From sequence record PP400781: a stretch of 64,000 nt of DNA. The stretch is one strand, 5' to 3'. The notes beneath the pieces were generated by a model. That model was given only the letters and a program-made list of their open reading frames with translations. It was not told where the DNA came from and searched no databases. Numbering within the stretch: the stretch's first letter is position 1; each line of letters opens with the position of its first letter. Positions 1 through 60,857 of this stretch are shown in pieces. Source of the stretch: Escherichia phage FL20. The translations under genes and the position numbers were made by a program.

Positions 1-411
1 TTCGAGTTCCATCATGATGGTACTTTCTATTCTCCGGGTAATGGTAACTTTAACGATGTTTATATTCGTTCTGATGACCGTCTTAAGATTAATAAAGAAG
101 AGTTAGAAAACGGAGCACTTGAAAAAGTATGCCGTCTGAAAGTTTATACTTACGATAAAGTTAAGTCTATTAAAGATCGTAGTGTGATTAAACGTGAAGC
201 TGGTATTATTGCTCAGGATCTTGAAAAAGAATTGCCGGAAGCTGTATCGAAAGTTGAAGTTGATGGATCTGACGTACTGACAATTTCTAACTCGGCAGTG
301 AATGCTCTTTTAATTAAGGCTATTCAGGAAATGAGTGAAGAAATTAAAGAATTGAAAACTCCTTTCTTTACTAAAATTGCTCGCAAAATTAGTAAATATT
401 TTAAATTCTAA
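1..411 (+). CDS. 37: Long tail fibre distal subunit gp37, C-terminal fragment (5' end outside window)
   Basis: Frame 1 is open from nt 1 to TAA at 409-411. Translation (FEFHHDGTFYSPGNG...SDDRLKINKEELENGALEKV...GIIAQDLEKELPEAV) resembles the C-terminal intramolecular chaperone domain of T-even fibre proteins; lies directly upstream of gp38. Confidence 0.75.
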   Translation, partial: FEFHHDGTFYSPGNGNFNDVYIRSDDRLKINKEELENGALEKVCRLKVYTYDKVKSIKDRSVIKREAGIIAQDLEKELPEAVSKVEVDGSDVLTISNSAVNALLIKAIQEMSEEIKELKTPFFTKIARKISKYFKF

Positions 412-448
412 CAACAAGGGGGCAACGCCCCCCTTTGGAGTATAAATT

Positions 449-1228
449 ATGGCAGTAGTTGGTGTTCCTGGTTGGATTGGAAGTTCAGCCGCAAATGAAA
501 CAGGGCAACGATGGATGAGTCAAGCGGCTGGTCAATTAAGATTGGGTGTTCCTTGCTGGATGAGTCAATTTGCAGGTCGCTCGCGAGAAATTATTCATAC
601 ACTTGGTGCAGACCATAACTTCAATGGTCAGTGGTTCCGTGATAGATGCTTTGAAGCAGGTAGTACACCTATAGTGTTTAATATCACTGGAGATTTAGTA
701 TCATATTCTAAAGATGTTCCTTTATTCTTTATGTACGGAGATACACCGAATGAATATGTTCAGTTGAATATACACGGCGTAACGATGTATGGACGTGGCG
801 GTAATGGCGGTAGCAATGGTCCTGGATCAGCCGGGGGGCATTGTATTCAAAATGATATTGGTGGGAGACTAAGAATTAATAATGGAGGTGCTATCGCTGG
901 CGGCGGTGGCGGTGGCGGTGGCGGTAACAGGGGTCGACTAGTATTTGGTGGTGGCGGTGGTCGCCCATTCGGTGCTGGTGGGTCTTCCTCGAATATGGGT
1001 TCTGGTGCAACCGCTGGCACTATTTACGCTCCGGGTCAAGGATCTGTTGGTTCGGGGTCTCTTAGTGCATATACAGGCGGTGCGGGCGGTAACGTTGGTG
1101 CTGCTGGAGGAAGATGTAATACTCACGGTAACGGTACAGAATATAACGGCGGAGCTGCTGGTTATGCTGTTATAGGGTCTGCTCCAACGTGGCAAAATCG
1201 CGGAGCTATTTACGGACCGGCTGTTTAG
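449..1228 (+). CDS. 38: Tail fibre adhesin gp38, T2/T6 type with glycine-rich motifs
   Basis: 259 aa; conserved N-terminus ([13 protein letters not shown]...[53 protein letters not shown]) then poly-Gly blocks separating short variable segments, as in T2-type gp38; position after gp37. Confidence 0.85.
895..930 (+). repeat. GGC/GGT codon microsatellite encoding a poly-glycine run in gp38
   Basis: Sequence gctggcggcggtggcggtggcggtggcggtaac read directly; encodes GGGGGGGGG. Confidence 0.7.
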
Positions 1229-1291
1229 ACGCAATTATAAAAAGAATTAAGGAAACTCCCACGGAAGGGAACTACTAAGGAGAAAACGGCT

Positions 1292-1531
1292 ATGGTCTAT
1301 AATATCGTCATTGGTGCTTTGTCTAATTTCGGAATGAAACTATTGTCAAAGTTAATTAGTGAAAAGATGCTCACTAAAATTTTCTTCTATTGCGCTCGTC
1401 GTCTTGCGGCTTATACCAACACGCCAATTGATGATCGTTTTGTGGAAGAACTTTATAAGGAGTTTAATAAAGATCAGTCAGAAGATAGCAACGAGCAAAA
1501 TAAAAATAGTGATAGTCAAGTACCTAAATAA
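1292..1531 (+). CDS. Hypothetical small protein between 38 and t
   Basis: 79-aa ORF with AAGGAG RBS 7 nt upstream of ATG; acidic C-terminus; no recognised homolog. Confidence 0.4.
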   Translation: MVYNIVIGALSNFGMKLLSKLISEKMLTKIFFYCARRLAAYTNTPIDDRFVEELYKEFNKDQSEDSNEQNKNSDSQVPK

Positions 1532-1564
1532 GAGTACACTGTCATAGTTATCTTAGGGCATTAT

Positions 1565-2221
1565 ATGCAAGTTTCTGAAAAAGGGAAAGACTTTTCTATC
1601 TCAAATGTCCTGCGCGCTATTTTCACAACTAAAAGCACGGAGTTGCTCGTACTTCGTGTTTTTGCTGCCGTCGTGTTGTCCATATTAGCATTTGTCGTTT
1701 ATAGTAAAAACGAGTTATTTGCCTTGTATAAAGAGACTCGTTATGAGACTTATGCTCACGTTCTCCAGGTAGAGAAAGACCGCAATTTTGATAATGCAGC
1801 ACAGGAGCAGTTACAGATAGTTCATGTGTCGGCTGATGCCGATTTTTCTGCTGTTTTTAGTTTTCGTCCGAAAAACCTAAACTATTTTGTTGATTTGGTG
1901 GCATATGAAGGAAAGCTACCGCATACAATCGATGAAAAAAATTTAGGCGGATTCCCTATCAATAAAACGAGTGAAGAATATCGTAGGCATCTTTTAGGTA
2001 AATCCTATTTTACCGATAAAGATTTCCAGTATATTCCATCAAGAGAAAAGAAATTAGAGAGTATCGATATAGGGTTTATGTATTCTTGTCCTATATTCAA
2101 TCTCGATAATGTCTATTCTGGTAGTATCTCCATTGCATGGAAGAATAAACCGGATATTGACATTGAGAATTTAGATACTCTTTGCAATCAATCTGCCAGA
2201 ATCCTCGGAAGGATTAGATAA
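1565..2221 (+). CDS. t: Holin t (lysis inhibition-sensitive holin)
   Basis: 218 aa, same length as T4 T; conserved blocks (YKETRYETY, LEQLQIVHVSADADFSAVFSFRPKNLNYFVDLVAYEGKLP, MYSCPIFNLDNVYSG, ARILGR); single N-terminal TM segment. Confidence 0.9.
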   Translation: MQVSEKGKDFSISNVLRAIFTTKSTELLVLRVFAAVVLSILAFVVYSKNELFALYKETRYETYAHVLQVEKDRNFDNAAQEQLQIVHVSADADFSAVFSFRPKNLNYFVDLVAYEGKLPHTIDEKNLGGFPINKTSEEYRRHLLGKSYFTDKDFQYIPSREKKLESIDIGFMYSCPIFNLDNVYSGSISIAWKNKPDIDIENLDTLCNQSARILGRIR

Positions 2222-2225
2222 CTTA

Positions 2226-2262
2226 AAGGGGAAGCCTTTCGGCCTCCCCCTTCTTTTTATTG
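2226..2262 (+). terminator. Rho-independent terminator after t
   Basis: GC-rich hairpin ggggaagcc-tttc-ggcctcccc (one mismatch) followed by cttcttttta T-run. Confidence 0.6.
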
Positions 2263-2505
2263 GCGCATAGAAGCCCCTGAATCACATTTTGACGCTGTAT
2301 GATGAAAACATGTAGCGTACCAGTCATCGGCTTGTTTGTCTTCGTCAGAAAACGCGTAATTTCGTTGTATGCCGTTTTCTACTTTGACCAGTGCAATAGC
2401 TGTTTCTGGAAGATCAATCAATCGGACAAAATCACCATCTTCCCACTCTACACGAGCAATATCATAGCCCATCTCAAAGTATACAATCGCTTGTTCTAAT
2501 TTCAT
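2257..2505 (-). CDS. Hypothetical protein (position of asiA in T4 but no recognisable similarity)
   Basis: 82-aa ORF, first minus-strand gene after t; does not resemble the remembered AsiA sequence. Confidence 0.4.
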   Translation of the reverse strand: MKLEQAIVYFEMGYDIARVEWEDGDFVRLIDLPETAIALVKVENGIQRNYAFSDEDKQADDWYATCFHHTASKCDSGASMRQ

Positions 2506-2831
2506 TCTGGAAACTTCCCGTAAACATTCTCTGCCAGCTTACGTGCATCTTTTACAATATCTTTCATGTAATGACTATAATTTTTAGCTAGATCAATGAT
2601 ACAATCAACAAAGAAGTAATAGCGTCGCAGTGCTACCAGCTCAACATCTTCAAGATGACCATTTTCTCCAATCGCTGAAATATGTTTAAATTCCTTTCGG
2701 ATCGCGTCCATCGCTACATTAACTTCTTTTATAATATCTTTCGTATTATATGCACCTCGACTAATCAAAATTTTGGTTAGGTCTTCTGCTTTTTCGTGAA
2801 AGTTGTCAATTTCAAACTCGATCATAATCAC
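2502..2831 (-). CDS. Hypothetical protein, paralog of 2940..3272
   Basis: 109 aa; C-terminal ...KLAENVYGKFPE matches ...RIMTENIFGKF of the neighbouring ORF. Confidence 0.5.
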   Translation of the reverse strand: MIMIEFEIDNFHEKAEDLTKILISRGAYNTKDIIKEVNVAMDAIRKEFKHISAIGENGHLEDVELVALRRYYFFVDCIIDLAKNYSHYMKDIVKDARKLAENVYGKFPE

Positions 2832-2939
2832 CTCTCATAGTTTCACGCTGTTGTTTCAACATTTTTTCGTGGTTTGCTAATTCTATACCTTGTAATAGCA
2901 TAACCAGTGCAATTTTCAATGATTCATCATCTTTCATAA

Positions 2940-3272
2940 TCAAAATTTACCGAAAATATTCTCTGTCATAATTCTTGCTTCGTCGATTATTTTCGTCATG
3001 TTCATGGTGTAGTTATGATCATTTAGTGCCTTAATGACAACGAGCAAGGAATCTAAAAACACTCGATACCGTGTATATTCTACGCTATTTGTGAATACCG
3101 ATGTTTTCTCTACTTTATCGATCAGATAGCCTAAAGCCGATAGCGCCTCGTTTACTTCCCTTGTTACTTTATCGGCGCTAAACAACACCGGATAAAGACG
3201 CGGTGTGATTAACCGCGCTGCCTCTTTCAATTCGGTCGCTTTCCATGATTCATATTTGTCATAATTAAACAT
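2940..3272 (-). CDS. Hypothetical protein, paralog of 2502..2831
   Basis: 110 aa; shared C-terminal motif with the adjacent ORF. Confidence 0.5.
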   Translation of the reverse strand: MFNYDKYESWKATELKEAARLITPRLYPVLFSADKVTREVNEALSALGYLIDKVEKTSVFTNSVEYTRYRVFLDSLLVVIKALNDHNYTMNMTKIIDEARIMTENIFGKF

Positions 3273-3284
3273 TGTATAATGTCC

Positions 3285-3617
3285 TTACAGATGAAAACCT
3301 GTTACAATCACCGCATCGATCATACCGCTAGGAATAAACGGTTCACCCTCTTTTATTTCAACTTTGAATTGATGCCATTTCGCTAATACTTCTTCCGGTA
3401 CACCCAGCGATTCGGCGTCTGCTTTGGTGTCATCTGTCACCCATTCCGGCTTCATGAGAGCATAGTTTACATAGTCCATTTCTGGTGTCATGTCATCAAT
3501 GTTAATATATTTGCAGTTGACGCGTTTCAGAATTTCAAATTCTTTATTATCAACCTGTACCATGTATAATTCAGTAGTTTCTGGAATCAGTTCCCACACA
3601 ATCAGTACATTTTTCAT
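3285..3617 (-). CDS. Hypothetical protein
   Basis: 110-aa ORF tightly packed in the minus-strand array. Confidence 0.45.
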   Translation of the reverse strand: MKNVLIVWELIPETTELYMVQVDNKEFEILKRVNCKYINIDDMTPEMDYVNYALMKPEWVTDDTKADAESLGVPEEVLAKWHQFKVEIKEGEPFIPSGMIDAVIVTGFHL

Positions 3618-4219: not shown

Positions 4220-4507
4220 TTATTTTCTGTTGTGGTCACGATATGTTTTAAAATATCCCTCGTACCACGGTAAAACATCTGGATTTTTACCACTATACAG
4301 ACCTTTAACCATCATGTCAATAAGGCCATCTGGTGTTTGATAGTTTCCAGCTTTTATAAGCTCTCTGATTAAAATCTCTCTGTATATGTCTTTAGGATCT
4401 TCGTAATCAACTTGTATTGTGGTTGTGGTCTCATTCAATTTGGTTTCTGGAGTATCTCGCATCGCCTTCCACCAATCTTTTGTAATCTTCATGTTATTGA
4501 ATTGCAT
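4220..4507 (-). CDS. Hypothetical protein
   Basis: 95-aa ORF in array. Confidence 0.4.
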   Translation of the reverse strand: MQFNNMKITKDWWKAMRDTPETKLNETTTTIQVDYEDPKDIYREILIRELIKAGNYQTPDGLIDMMVKGLYSGKNPDVLPWYEGYFKTYRDHNRK

Positions 4508-4518
4508 AATTTAACCTC

Positions 4519-5277
4519 TTACTTGCAAACGTATTGATCTACATCAATTGCGCCACCGAATGTAGGATGACGTTTTTCAAATCGAATAGTTCCGTCGTTT
4601 GGTTCGAAAACGGAGTATTCATATAGATCTTTCTTGCCAACATTCTTATAAAACCCGCCTTTCGTCATAACGGTTTCTTGTACGTTTGCTTTGTGTACGT
4701 TGTATTCGTCAATGTATACAAAATCAACCATCTTCCCATTTTTAATGGTTACTTTAAGATCTCCTGGTTGATTTCCATATTTGGCATACAGTGGCGCTTC
4801 TTTAATTTTTGTGGAAATTCCATCTTTCATACTCCACTCATAACGAACGGTGCATTGATAGGTAAAAGTTTCGACCTTCGGTTCTTCCACCACTTTTTCT
4901 TCCTGTTTCGGTTGTTCTTCTTCAACCTTCACAGAAGTCTCTGAATCGCTTTCTGACGCGGTTTCTTCTTTAGGTAATACATTCATCAAATTTTGGATTT
5001 GAGCGTTGTATACAGCCTCCAGTGGCTGGATCTGCCCGATATTGATCATTGTATCACGAACAGTTTTATTCCAGTTGAGTTGCTCTTGTTTAAGAGACGG
5101 ATCAATCTTAACAGCCTTAACATATACTTCATGAAGTTTCGAATCCAGTGCGGAGATTGACTCATTAGCACAAATAAACTTCTCTGATTTGGTAGTGGCT
5201 TTAGCGCAATCAAAGGACGCAGCATTAGCACCGAAAGCAGTAGCGGAAAGAACGATAGCAGCGATAATGTTTTTCAT
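4519..5277 (-). CDS. Secreted protein with LprI/DUF1311-like N-terminal domain (lysozyme-inhibitor-like)
   Basis: 252 aa; signal peptide MKNIIAAIVLSATAFGANA; then C-x10-C ... LDSKLHEVY ... QLNWNK pattern typical of DUF1311; Glu/Lys-rich linker; own promoter at about 5312-5340. Confidence 0.55.
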   Translation of the reverse strand: MKNIIAAIVLSATAFGANAASFDCAKATTKSEKFICANESISALDSKLHEVYVKAVKIDPSLKQEQLNWNKTVRDTMINIGQIQPLEAVYNAQIQNLMNVLPKEETASESDSETSVKVEEEQPKQEEKVVEEPKVETFTYQCTVRYEWSMKDGISTKIKEAPLYAKYGNQPGDLKVTIKNGKMVDFVYIDEYNVHKANVQETVMTKGGFYKNVGKKDLYEYSVFEPNDGTIRFEKRHPTFGGAIDVDQYVCK

Positions 5278-47613: not shown

Positions 47614-48788
47614 GCACTAACTTTTTTCTTTACTGCTTTCACCTTCTGGCGAATTGCTCGAATCTCTTCGATCTCTTTTTCAGTCTCTTTAACAATTTCT
47701 TTGCGATTCTGAATATCTGTATCTAGATTCTCATCGAGTTTAGGCAGCATGTCGATCAAGAACTTTTTAAGATCTTTCAGGTTTCGGATAACAGCACCTT
47801 CACCCATTACCGCCACGCCTACACCATCCGGCAGACCACCAAACAGTTTAACCAGTTCAGACAGATGATCATGATCTTCTAGTGCTTCTTCCGGTTCAGA
47901 TGGCAGTTCAACAAAGTAATAACGTTCATCATTGCTGATCAGGTGATACCAGCAAAGCCCGAAAGATTTCGGTGTATATTCTACACCATCAATTTCAACC
48001 GCGTCAACACTTCCATAATCATCTACTTTAGTTACCTTAAATCCTTGTCCCAGCTTTTGAACAATTTCAACAACATGACTTGATACAGTTTCAGCGGTAA
48101 ACCAATATGGCAAATTATGCTGATTTGGCTTGTAGCGTTCACCTACTTTAAATCTCTGACCAGCCGCTTGCATAGCATGAAATTGTTGTTTCGTGATTTC
48201 CGCGAAGTATTCAAATTCGCCACCATCAAACACACAAGCCCATTGATCACAAAAACGATCTGCCTTAACAGTTTCACCTTTCGCGGTGATCATGGTAGCT
48301 GATCCATGCAATTCTTCTTCAACTAAAAAGCCATATTCGACAAAATCAACAAGTTTCATGGCTTCTTTGTGCTCTGGATCATGCTCTCCCCAGAATCGCT
48401 TAAATTCTTGCAAACCTTCTGGGGTAAACGAATAACATTTACCTTTTTCAAAGTAAGTCGGCATTGCATCCTCTTTCTTGTTCATCGCTTCGTATGCCTC
48501 TTTTGAGATACGTTTAAAGAATTTACGCTCATCGTGCATAATCATAGTAGCCCAATAATAAACGATATCCTCAGCGGAATAAACTACATCTCCAGCTTCA
48601 ATAGTAATAACATGACCGTGGTCATCTTTTTCTAATACTTTAAAGCCCTTTTCTACGATTTCAGCAACCCGAATATGACCACGGCGCGAAGCATCGGTCA
48701 GAATAATTGAATAGCGAGAAAAGTCTAGAAACTCATCTTTACCGCCTTCACGGAATGCATAGTAATGACCTTCAAAGAATTTAGCCAT
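47610..48788 (-). CDS. WEVGK-module family protein (3 tandem modules plus tail)
   Basis: 392 aa; three repeats each with a G(E/K)xY core, an IEAGD/VEIDG box and an ERKFF/ERYYF box; Lys/Glu coiled-coil tail. Confidence 0.5.
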   Translation of the reverse strand: MAKFFEGHYYAFREGGKDEFLDFSRYSIILTDASRRGHIRVAEIVEKGFKVLEKDDHGHVITIEAGDVVYSAEDIVYYWATMIMHDERKFFKRISKEAYEAMNKKEDAMPTYFEKGKCYSFTPEGLQEFKRFWGEHDPEHKEAMKLVDFVEYGFLVEEELHGSATMITAKGETVKADRFCDQWACVFDGGEFEYFAEITKQQFHAMQAAGQRFKVGERYKPNQHNLPYWFTAETVSSHVVEIVQKLGQGFKVTKVDDYGSVDAVEIDGVEYTPKSFGLCWYHLISNDERYYFVELPSEPEEALEDHDHLSELVKLFGGLPDGVGVAVMGEGAVIRNLKDLKKFLIDMLPKLDENLDTDIQNRKEIVKETEKEIEEIRAIRQKVKAVKKKVSA

Positions 48789-49761: not shown

Positions 49762-50235
49762 CTATCTTAATCTTTGTATAAATTGTTTCTTATACTTCTT
49801 CGTGATCTCTTCTCTTGTATCCGCGTCACAGTAATCGAAACCTTCTGCGTCCATAATAGCAACCATCTCCGCGCGTGTCAAGCGTGAAAATCGTTTTACT
49901 TTATCAACAGCATATTGAGGATGTAAATGATTGTTGGTGTAGTCTCCTTTGATGTAATTAACATAGTTTGTAGCCCAAACAACGAAATCAGCACCTAAAG
50001 CACCAACACCAAACCGTTTAAAGTCTCCGGTCAACGATCCTTCTAGGCGGTTGCAACACGAATGAAGCAATCCCCTTACGCGGCCTTGCCCTTTCCCATC
50101 TAGATCGTGATCGTGGTCAAGATGGTTTTTGCTCATATCCTCAAAAAGTGGCAATTGACAAAGGGGGCAAATGCCCCCCTGTTTTTCGAATAGTTCTTGT
50201 TTGTACTCTTTAGCACTCTTAGCAGTCAGTAACAT
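49762..50235 (-). CDS. 49: Endonuclease VII gp49 (Holliday-junction resolvase)
   Basis: 157 aa from ATG 50233-50235 (same length as T4); CPLCQ zinc motif, HLDHDHDL, RGLLHSCCN, FSRL match T4 EndoVII. Confidence 0.9.
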   Translation of the reverse strand: MLLTAKSAKEYKQELFEKQGGICPLCQLPLFEDMSKNHLDHDHDLDGKGQGRVRGLLHSCCNRLEGSLTGDFKRFGVGALGADFVVWATNYVNYIKGDYTNNHLHPQYAVDKVKRFSRLTRAEMVAIMDAEGFDYCDADTREEITKKYKKQFIQRLR

Positions 50236-56126: not shown

Positions 56127-56156
56127 ATTTGATTCTCCTTAGTTGGTATGGTTATC

Positions 56157-56184
56157 ATTATACGGGGATTTCTCCCCGTGTCAA
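56157..56184 (-). promoter_or_regulatory. Sigma70-type early promoter with dyad spacer
   Basis: TTGACA-cggggagaaatccccg-TATAAT. Confidence 0.55.
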
Positions 56185-56187
56185 CAA

Positions 56188-56463
56188 TTAAATGATCTCT
56201 GCTTCACCGTTAAGGAAGAAAGACCATGTTTTGTTAGGATAACGAAGCGCCCATGATTCAGCAGTTTTAACACCAGCTTCGAACAATTGACGGCTGGTTA
56301 CTTTAGCCATACCATCTTCGATGGCAACGTTTTCAATAATCATCGGGTACTTAGCGCCACGCATGAAACCGAAGCCAGCGGAAGATTTGATGATTTTAAC
56401 AGTTGCCATTTTTGATTCTCCTAGAAAGTGTCGTGTTTCGATGGGTGTATTATGCAATAACAC
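56188..56463 (-). CDS. Small paralog family member C
   Basis: Internal start MATVKIIKSSAGFGFMRGAKYPMIIEN...; AGGAGAATCAAAA leader. Confidence 0.4.
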   Translation of the reverse strand: MLLHNTPIETRHFLGESKMATVKIIKSSAGFGFMRGAKYPMIIENVAIEDGMAKVTSRQLFEAGVKTAESWALRYPNKTWSFFLNGEAEII

Positions 56464-60497: not shown

Positions 60498-60857
60498 TTA
60501 GTCACGGGAAGACAACCCAGCCATAAAACGGCTTAACAGTGTGTCGCGATAAGCAAAGCATAATTGCTTATCAGGGGCAGTATCACACAGGTTACGTTTT
60601 GTTTTAGCAAAGCTGGCAATACTCAGATCCCACGCTCGATTTTTTCGTTTTTCGTCTCGACCTTGTTTGTATGCTTCATCAAGTTCGAGCGCGATAAAAT
60701 CACTACACATGTTATCATCATCACAGAAAGTTTTAATGATCTTTTTGTTGATCTCAAATCCTTTGTATTCGAACTTTGGATAAGGGCGCTCATTACTAGC
60801 AAGCGCACCAGCAGAGAACATCATAGCAATCATAGCAATTATTGTCAACTTTTTCAT
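60498..60857 (-). CDS. Secreted/periplasmic protein with 4 Cys
   Basis: 119 aa; signal peptide MKKLTIIAMIAMMFSAGALA. Confidence 0.45.
   Translation of the reverse strand: MKKLTIIAMIAMMFSAGALASNERPYPKFEYKGFEINKKIIKTFCDDDNMCSDFIALELDEAYKQGRDEKRKNRAWDLSIASFAKTKRNLCDTAPDKQLCFAYRDTLLSRFMAGLSSRD

Follow-up and report, generated by a model that had tools for sequence, protein, structure and literature searches.

A mosaic gp38 adhesin with a nine-glycine core run of near-fixed length in a Krischvirus

Gene 38 and its surroundings

[quoted passage not shown] A preliminary sequence-only reading had already named this frame (449-1228) a gp38 adhesin with poly-glycine blocks, which was borne out by Pfam, by PDB matches and by the presence of G9 and G5 runs. 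The Pfam family GP38 (PF05268) covered residues 47-258 at 1.5e-69, with 234.6 bits (curated Pfam cut-off 25) and spanning profile positions 1-217 of 218, while PHROG 2056, labelled 'tail fiber protein; host specificity', matched at 3e-107. Sequence matches in the PDB were obtained to 9v85 (7e-77), the receptor-binding domain of PP01 gp38 (PMC12892980), and to 6f45_D (3.5e-50). Among 63 gp38 homologues Trp9 of the attachment domain was invariant and Trp22 nearly so, and Trp37 is present in the window protein. The amino acid sequence is 100% identical to QHR71598.1 of phage kvi and XAO15133.1 of phage FL20, both Krischvirus, and positions 1-2400 share 98.8% DNA identity with kvi (MN850615.1).

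Table 1 Features of the gene 38 locus and of the displaced g38 site. Borders of glycine-rich motifs (GRM) and hypervariable segments (HVS) follow our own delineation and are approximate.
Feature	Position	Strand	Basis or remark
Gene 37 3' end, distal long-tail-fibre subunit, C-terminal intramolecular chaperone domain	1..411	+	Pfam Peptidase_S74 1.4e-12; PHROG 1699 3e-55
Putative ribosome-binding site GGAG, 8 nt 5' of the gene 38 ATG	437..440	+	Predicted, read from sequence
Gene 38, receptor-recognising adhesin, 259 aa	449..1228 (stop 1226-1228)	+	PF21721, PF05268, PHROG 2056, PDB matches
Gp38_N attachment domain, residues 1-42, Trp9/Trp22/Trp37	449..574	+	PF21721 5.7e-20
Mosaic segment A, T6/FL04-type	449..885	+	~100% to FL04 and kvi, 40-60% to RB49
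GRM1, residues 115-121, GRGGNGG	791..811	+	Length 7 in 110/110
HVS1, residues 122-128, SNGPGSA	812..832	+	Homologue lengths 7-15; high entropy and gaps
GRM2 (Trojet numbering), residues 129-159, nine-Gly run at end	833..925	+	Residues 129-150 length 22 in 110/110; 151-159 length 9 in 107/110
Left junction zone of recombination, Gly tract and adjoining 5' DNA	886..925	+	Informative sites
Nine Gly codons, GGC followed by (GGCGGT)x4	899..925	+	Sequence; counterpart of S16 PGII helix 3 by 6f45_D alignment
HVS2, residues 160-166, NRGRLVF	926..946	+	Homologue lengths 0-15; RB49/JSE/Bas45/FL18 type
Mosaic segment B, RB49-type HVS2-HVS4 specificity cassette	926..1162	+	84-100% to RB49, 36-82% to FL04/T6 (sliding windows)
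GRM3, residues 167-178	947..982	+	Length 12 in 109/110
HVS3, residues 179-209	983..1075	+	Homologue lengths 22-69
GRM4, residues 210-221	1076..1111	+	Length 12 in 108/110
HVS4, residues 222-233	1112..1147	+	Homologue lengths 5-14
GRM5 and conserved C-terminal strands, residues 234-259	1148..1225	+	Length 26 in 108/110
Mosaic segment C, FL04/FL15/MIZ4-type 3' end	1163..1228	+	Informative sites
79-aa ORF between g38 and t	1292..1531	+	PHROG 402 5e-20, function unknown; kvi note 'Dc5 [RB49]'
Holin t	1565..2221	+	Pfam Phage_holin_T 7.8e-61
Empty site of RB49's displaced g38	56150..56188	-	RB49 locus L026 alignment

The gene order g37, g38, 79-aa ORF and t is the same in kvi, and g38 lies, as in T2/T6-type phages, directly downstream of the part of g37 for the cleavable C-terminal chaperone domain (PHROG 1699 label 'long tail fiber protein distal subunit') and upstream of the holin gene. 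The last 200 amino acids of kvi gp37 align closely with T6 gp37. In RB49-like phages a small ORF of the 79-aa type takes the usual place of g38, as exemplified by ORF252 of Phi1 directly 3' of g37, and g38 of RB49, Phi1 and JSE belongs to the early region at a distance of ~54 kb, leaving the small ORF alone after g37 (PMC3157838). Alignment with the corresponding RB49 locus (L026) revealed that its positions 1-3505 and 4414-4951 match positions 59689-56188 and 56150-55613 of the window, with the 909 bp carrying g38 cleanly missing. In kvi, T6-like DNA with 77% nucleotide identity runs without a break from the C-terminal half of gp37 through g38, and Phi1-like DNA returns at 99% identity ten bases past the g38 stop codon; such a block agrees with a lock-and-key match between the gp37 tip and the N-terminal type of gp38.

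Three further open reading frames overlapping gene 38 (847-1020, minus strand, poly-Pro; 938-1234, minus strand; 945-1175, plus strand) were discarded, as they mirror the Gly codons and the plus-strand frame of gene 38 explains the region. No Rfam family matched anywhere in the 64-kb window at gathering thresholds, and a promoter and terminator scan of positions 1-2400 returned nothing near g38 exceeding the shuffled expectation; the motif TATAAATT at 441-448 was ruled out as a g38 promoter because it overlaps the start codon.

Architecture and predicted fold of the adhesin

Glycine accounts for 25.5% of gp38 and is unevenly spread, rising from 11.4% over residues 1-114 to 36.6% over residues 115-259; besides ten GG pairs there are the G9 run (residues 151-159) and the G5 run (residues 167-171, encoded at nt 947-961). 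For delineation of the segments, 110 near-full-length cluster representatives of gp38 were aligned and evaluated by entropy, gap profile and a segment-length table. Every GRM block proved constant in length in at least 107 of the 110 homologues, and all four hypervariable segments differ in both sequence and length. Judged from this alignment, the window gp38 is confirmed to follow the layout of five GRMs and four HVSs that Trojet et al. 2011 had described with T6 gp38 as model (PMC3157838). Alignment of homologues, a check that the sequence-only reading had proposed for T2, T6 and K3 gp38, delimited the variable segments, and the protein did not fall into a different adhesin class lacking such segments; the further proposal that glycine-rich motifs border hypervariable segments and that these set receptor specificity agrees with our segment lengths in its first part and with published work in its second (PMC3157838, PMC12032242, bioRxiv 10.64898/2026.04.02.716166).

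An AlphaFold2 model of gp38 built from 63 homologues reached a mean pLDDT of 87.4, and a Foldseek comparison of this model with the PDB retrieved only 9v85 (E 4e-25, target TM 0.88, rmsd 2.1) and 6f45_D (E 4e-21), all other matches having E > 2. The predicted fold comprises an attachment domain, a beta-helix and a polyglycine-II (PGII) sandwich. In the HMMER alignment to 6f45_D, residues 151-158 fall on residues 151-GGGGGGGG-158 of S16 gp38, which were described as an unusually long central PGII helix ('helix 3; 151-GGGGGGGG-158'), and the hydrogen-bond network between the central GRM 3 of S16 and its neighbours was described as saturating (PMC6851490). The nine-Gly run was modelled with a pLDDT of at least 92 and mostly carried no alpha or beta assignment, as is expected for PGII. 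We conclude that the run forms part of the structural core; its PGII state is likely, given the alignment to S16 and the model. The description of the run as a linker in the sequence-only reading could not be maintained.

Mosaic structure, codon repeat and tract length

Codon-level comparison of informative sites with FL04, FL15, MIZ4, kvi, T6, Pu-Krd-SF2 and RB49 revealed that gene 38 is a three-part mosaic whose left junction falls within the Gly tract or next to it. Within segment A, nearly all sites that distinguish FL04 from RB49 are FL04-like, including every site from 841 to 885, and the N-terminus of the protein is of the T6/M1 type, being 100% identical to FL04 and only 47-50% identical to RB49 and T2. 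Further downstream, sites at 889-901 are RB49-like, as in MIZ4, those at 913-919 are FL04-like, and the sequence is RB49-like from 922 onward, with megablast of 893-1172 giving 93.6% to both RB49 and Phi1. Four synonymous sites define this RB49-like patch at 889-901. The right junction was located at ~1157-1165 within GRM5 (NGGAAG). Differences between the window and kvi cluster just 5' of the tract, at 886-901, a stretch of RB49-like sequence in the window and of T6-like sequence in kvi; in kvi the left switch occurs at 919-926, with FL04-like sites up to 919 and RB49-like sites from 922. MIZ4 shows the reverse arrangement of kvi, as it carries the RB49-like patch at 889-901 and then stays of the FL04 type. 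Window, kvi and MIZ4 consequently have three different switch points within 40 nt (886-926).

The breakpoints of gene 38 thus lie inside GRM-coding DNA (GRM2 and GRM5), matching the module shuffling of Tétart 1998 and Trojet 2011, and a common junction motif recurs in independent recombinants, namely the window, kvi, MIZ4 and a laboratory recombinant of CM8 and EV240. These results suggest that the Gly tract acts as a recombination joint for swaps of the specificity cassette, as Tétart and Trojet had proposed. Crossovers require homology, however, so that breakpoints within GRMs are to be expected and are no proof that this tract is a special hot spot.

The tract itself contains the GGCGGT microsatellite that the sequence-only reading had placed at about 895-930, a slightly wide range: Tandem Repeats Finder reported positions 902-925 (unit GGCGGT, period 6, 4.0 copies, 100% match) as the sole array near gene 38, and it is the only repeat with at least four perfect copies in the 64-kb window. 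The chance of a perfect fourfold hexamer arising in nine Gly codons is ~0.8% if GGC and GGT are drawn as used in such tracts (roughly equally) and ~0.07% under the Gly codon usage of the whole gene, so that the GGC/GGT alternation is somewhat non-random. It is partly common to the close relatives kvi, FL15, FL04 and MIZ4, and the GenBank record of kvi already carries a repeat_region mapping to 900-925 of the window. The window and the relatives fetched for comparison together yielded 14 distinct nine-codon tracts, every one spelled differently, e.g. (GGTGGC)x4.5 for kvi and (GGCGGCGGT)x3 for an RB49 assembly, and the first codon of the tract is GGC in the window and GGT in kvi.

It is conceivable, although we regard it as fairly unlikely, that the repeat serves no purpose as DNA, in that GGN codons make repetition unavoidable and junctions fall there only because no other DNA is conserved, with nothing singling out this tract. 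The degeneracy of Gly codons, the approximately one dozen tract spellings in relatives and the second junction at GRM5, which lacks a long repeat, would all fit such an explanation. It accounts less well for the over-representation of GGC/GGT alternation (111 unlike versus 58 like neighbouring codons across distinct tracts, which are phylogenetically related), for the three different breakpoints within 40 nt, and for recurrent indels between both Gly tracts, i.e. a duplication in Yersinia phage ZN18 and deletions in the relatives P0018 and P0031. From our preferred explanation, in which conserved Gly codons serve as crossover points, it differs in emphasis only.

Concerning tract length, the block occupies nine positions in 107 of the 110 representatives even though its codons are spelled in about a dozen ways. 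Within the larger set of 234 sequences, 115 carry an HVS2 of the NRG type, and 112 of these have nine Gly, the others having 8, 6 and 4 Gly (once each). The 8-Gly form, (GGC)7GGT, belongs to a 97% identical relative (L035/P0128), 6 Gly were found in P0105 and P0137, and 4 Gly in P0062; no expansion beyond nine Gly was present among the 234 sequences, and all length changes (8, 6, 6, 4) are contractions. Copy number was thus not polymorphic in both directions among close relatives, as it would be for a contingency repeat. Classes of 7, 8 and 9 Gly that had emerged from a regular-expression survey were dismissed, since the alignment traced them to substitutions in the final one or two positions of a block of constant length, and cluster members of 257 or 258 aa mostly differ at the N-terminus, leaving P0128 as the sole true 8-Gly form among them. 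That the length is maintained despite drift or reshuffling of the codons points to purifying selection on it, with changes in length probably being selected against. No viable T6 phage with GRM2, GRM3 or GRM4 deleted was recovered among 220 progeny (PMC3157838).

Larger changes were also observed. HVS2 is absent from P0018 (two assemblies) and P0031, the sequences looking as if both Gly tracts had fused, and ZN18 contains a 51-nt duplication of GGGGG plus HVS2 that is reciprocal to this loss. Several of the short-tract and HVS2-deleted variants come from short-read assemblies and could be artefacts, and the tract-length variants are singletons, mostly of that origin. Slippage-like events at the Gly tracts do occur, yet they are rare and nearly always contractions. 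The ZN18 duplication, the HVS2-less P0018 and P0031 and the tracts of 8, 6 and 4 Gly could also be read as the products of a small indel engine formed by the tracts 899-925 and 947-961, whose misalignment would shorten the central helix and delete or duplicate HVS2. We consider this improbable; if true, it would constitute a third, undescribed route to host-range change in gp38 beside point mutation and cassette exchange.

Taken further, the proposal of the sequence-only reading that slippage of the microsatellite alters the length of a poly-Gly linker would give the phage a fast route to new receptor specificity, an explanation that we regard as very unlikely. The repeat is real and perfect, its hexamer periodicity is improbable by chance, and both spelling and, rarely, length do change, so that length variation stands to the extent of the few contractions. 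Against it speak the near-constancy of nine Gly, the singleton nature of the variants and the missing GRM-deleted progeny, all described above, as well as the alignment of the tract with a buried PGII helix (PMC6851490) and the fact that the host-range changes described in PMC3157838 and PMC12892980 map to HVSs. Overall, a slippage-prone poly-Gly linker is mostly wrong in structural terms and weakly, at best marginally, supported by the comparative data.

Receptor, origin and relation to known adhesins

As FL20, which encodes the identical protein, was classified by Lutz et al. as a 'type 2' OmpA-dependent phage (PMC12032242), OmpA is most likely the receptor of the window gp38. Residues 160-233 (HVS2-HVS4) are 84-92% identical to those of the OmpA phages Bas45 PaulHMueller (PMC8594841), FL18, FL12 and EV240 and also of RB49 and JSE, for which we found no receptor data. 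Over the same residues, identity to T6, FL04 and FL15, which bind Tsx, is only 58-62%, and it falls to 44% for M1 and to 37% for T2. These identities lend independent support to OmpA. Binding to Tsx, as in the closest Krischvirus neighbours FL04 and FL15 and in T6, was rejected as extremely improbable, since the identity of the N-terminal 159 residues including HVS1 to FL04, a Tsx phage (PMC12032242), and the whole-protein identity of 80-85% to T6 (depending on the alignment) are outweighed by the HVS2-HVS4 identities, by the OmpA dependence of FL20 and by a gp38 swap between CM8 and EV240, in which exchange 'from HVS2 onwards' only was sufficient to yield an OmpA-specific phage (bioRxiv 10.64898/2026.04.02.716166).

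The simplest history of the OmpA-type allele would begin with the import of a Tequatrovirus-type module of g37 tip and g38, continue with retention or re-acquisition of the resident RB49-type HVS2-HVS4 cassette via recombination at GRMs, and end with loss of the displaced g38 copy, the order of these steps being the one we infer.

Taken together, we consider it highly probable that the locus encodes an OmpA-type gp38 in which the nine-Gly run forms a PGII core helix of near-fixed length and in which Gly codons provide the crossover points. According to this explanation, residues 1-42 would dock on gp37, residues from ~47 onward would build the beta-helix with the PGII sandwich of glycine-rich motifs extending from it, and the hypervariable segments would form receptor-contacting loops at the far end. 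Residues 151-159 would represent the long central PGII helix, which must consist of Gly and keep a near-fixed length because neighbouring helices pack directly on its backbone. This requirement in turn would result in repetitive GGC/GGT DNA, and since otherwise divergent g38 alleles share no homology apart from the conserved stretches of Gly codons, these would act as crossover points. In the allele, 5' DNA of the T6 type, covering the N-terminal attachment domain, the beta-helix and HVS1, meets an RB49-type HVS2-HVS4 cassette at the poly-Gly tract, which in turn gives way to FL04-type 3' DNA at GRM5. This analysis itself showed the family to which the protein belongs, its architecture, the constancy of its block lengths, the mosaic breakpoints and the identity to FL20 and kvi; OmpA dependence, the PGII structure and the non-recovery of GRM deletions are taken from the literature.

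The finding is real and ordinary, and its essentials have already been published or deposited: the protein is in GenBank for two phages, the receptor was found experimentally, the architecture was described between 1987 and 2011, and the fold was solved in 2018 and 2026. What can be corrected is the view of the poly-Gly stretch, which is better understood as a load-bearing helix of conserved length than as a tunable linker. Of practical use for phage engineering is that, in recombinants from nature and from the laboratory alike, a new HVS2-HVS4 cassette is linked to an existing attachment domain at the Gly-codon tract.

Among known systems, the Tsx adhesin gp38 of T6 shares the N-terminal type, the GRMs, the nine-Gly run and the place between g37 and t, whereas its HVS2-HVS4 are of another type (58% identity over residues 160-233), with an HVS2 of 12 aa as compared to 7 aa in the window gp38. 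The native Krischvirus allele of RB49, Phi1 and JSE shows the opposite pattern, as its HVS2-HVS4 cassette agrees at 92% (protein) and 93.6% (DNA) and its Gly run is of equal length, while its N-terminal domain is only 47-48% identical and its C-terminal end is unlike. The window gp38 is predicted to share its three-part fold with the solved structures of the S16 gp37-gp38 tip (6F45) and the PP01 gp38 receptor-binding domain (9V85), and its poly-Gly helix aligns with theirs; gp38 of S16 and PP01 differs by 8 Gly followed by an aromatic residue, by other loops and by its receptor OmpC (PMC12892980, PMC6851490). Finally, the microsatellites of bacterial contingency loci resemble the tract in being short perfect tandem repeats within a surface-recognition gene. 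The repeat in gp38, in contrast, is in frame, comprises four hexamer copies only, which is short for a contingency repeat, and has a copy number that is near-invariant among relatives.

gp38 variants at the glycine-codon tracts

Comparison of the adhesin with its homologues revealed that in the gp38 of Yersinia phage vB_YepM_ZN18 (MN716856.1, L004 1501-2334) a 51-nt unit, GGGGG+YYSPFSQMRLTF, is perfectly duplicated in tandem. The unit comprises a glycine-rich motif plus the second hypervariable segment (HVS2), and the resulting protein has 277 aa. This duplication is a natural event between the two Gly-codon tracts. The isolation host of ZN18 is Yersinia pseudotuberculosis. Further gp38 variants, P0018 and P0031, are without any HVS2; the first is present in two assemblies (L029 and L030; ENA ERZ27235453 and Logan SRR7533025), and the second has a different HVS3 background.

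A 94.5-kb Logan contig (ERR10879143, L035) carries gp38 DNA 97% identical to window 1-1318, with a tract of (GGC)7GGT encoding eight Gly. Its gp38 is preceded by a 1140-aa gp37 and followed by unrelated genes rather than by the 79-aa ORF and holin, and the same adhesin module is therefore found in another genomic context. A 303-aa protein annotated at NCBI as 'tail fiber domain-containing protein [Escherichia coli]' (P0033) matches gp38 identically through the sixth Gly of the tract, past which it runs into Peptidase_S74-containing sequence. Either the assembly is chimeric here or the gene has been rearranged, with the break in the Gly tract.

Open reading frames, hairpins and repeats elsewhere in the window

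Scoring of the 82-aa ORF beyond the holin against the Thoeris anti-defence 2-like domain gave 27.9 bits (E 3.4e-6), which exceeds the curated cut-off of 25, and the ORF is a candidate anti-defence gene. The match of the 252-aa ORF to the lysozyme inhibitor LprI was weak (E 3.9e-4), its 21.2 bits falling slightly under the cut-off of 22. Two GC-rich hairpins resemble terminators or RNA-stability elements, neither of them being called in a simple scan. TRF returned three further tandem repeats, all short and imperfect.

Features of the window outside g38
Feature	Position	Strand	Remarks
79-aa ORF	1292-1531	+	follows g38 and precedes holin t; PHROG 402
82-aa ORF	2257-2505	-	just downstream of holin, opposite strand; Pfam Tad2-like PF11195
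252-aa ORF	4519-5277	-	N-terminus signal-peptide-like; weak LprI match
GC-rich hairpin	416-436		g37-g38 spacer; GGGGGCAACGCCCCCC then TTT
GC-rich hairpin	2226-2262		after holin; GGGGAAGCCTTTCGGCCTCCCC then T run
Imperfect short tandem repeat	48557-48596		period 21, ~2 copies; TRF
Imperfect short tandem repeat	49819-49868		period 22, ~2 copies; TRF
Imperfect short tandem repeat	60820-60839		period 9, ~2 copies; TRF

The vacant g38 site and the 79-aa ORF

Alignment with the RB49 locus (L026 3505-4414) identified window 56150-56188 (-) as the counterpart of the site that holds the displaced g38 in RB49, Phi1 and JSE. The 909 bp holding g38 are cleanly missing there, and the window phage therefore has a single g38, at the T-even position. 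Immediately after the stop codon of the gene upstream of this vacant site lies an early-promoter-like TTGACA-N17-TATAAT.

As for the 79-aa ORF, its N-terminus looks hydrophobic, and a direct Pfam scan found no family at E <= 0.01; the copy in the closely related Krischvirus phage kvi carries the precomputed Pfam tag PF26925 (Phage_PM2_Gpl). In RB49-like phages, it is this ORF that fills the slot where g38 usually sits.
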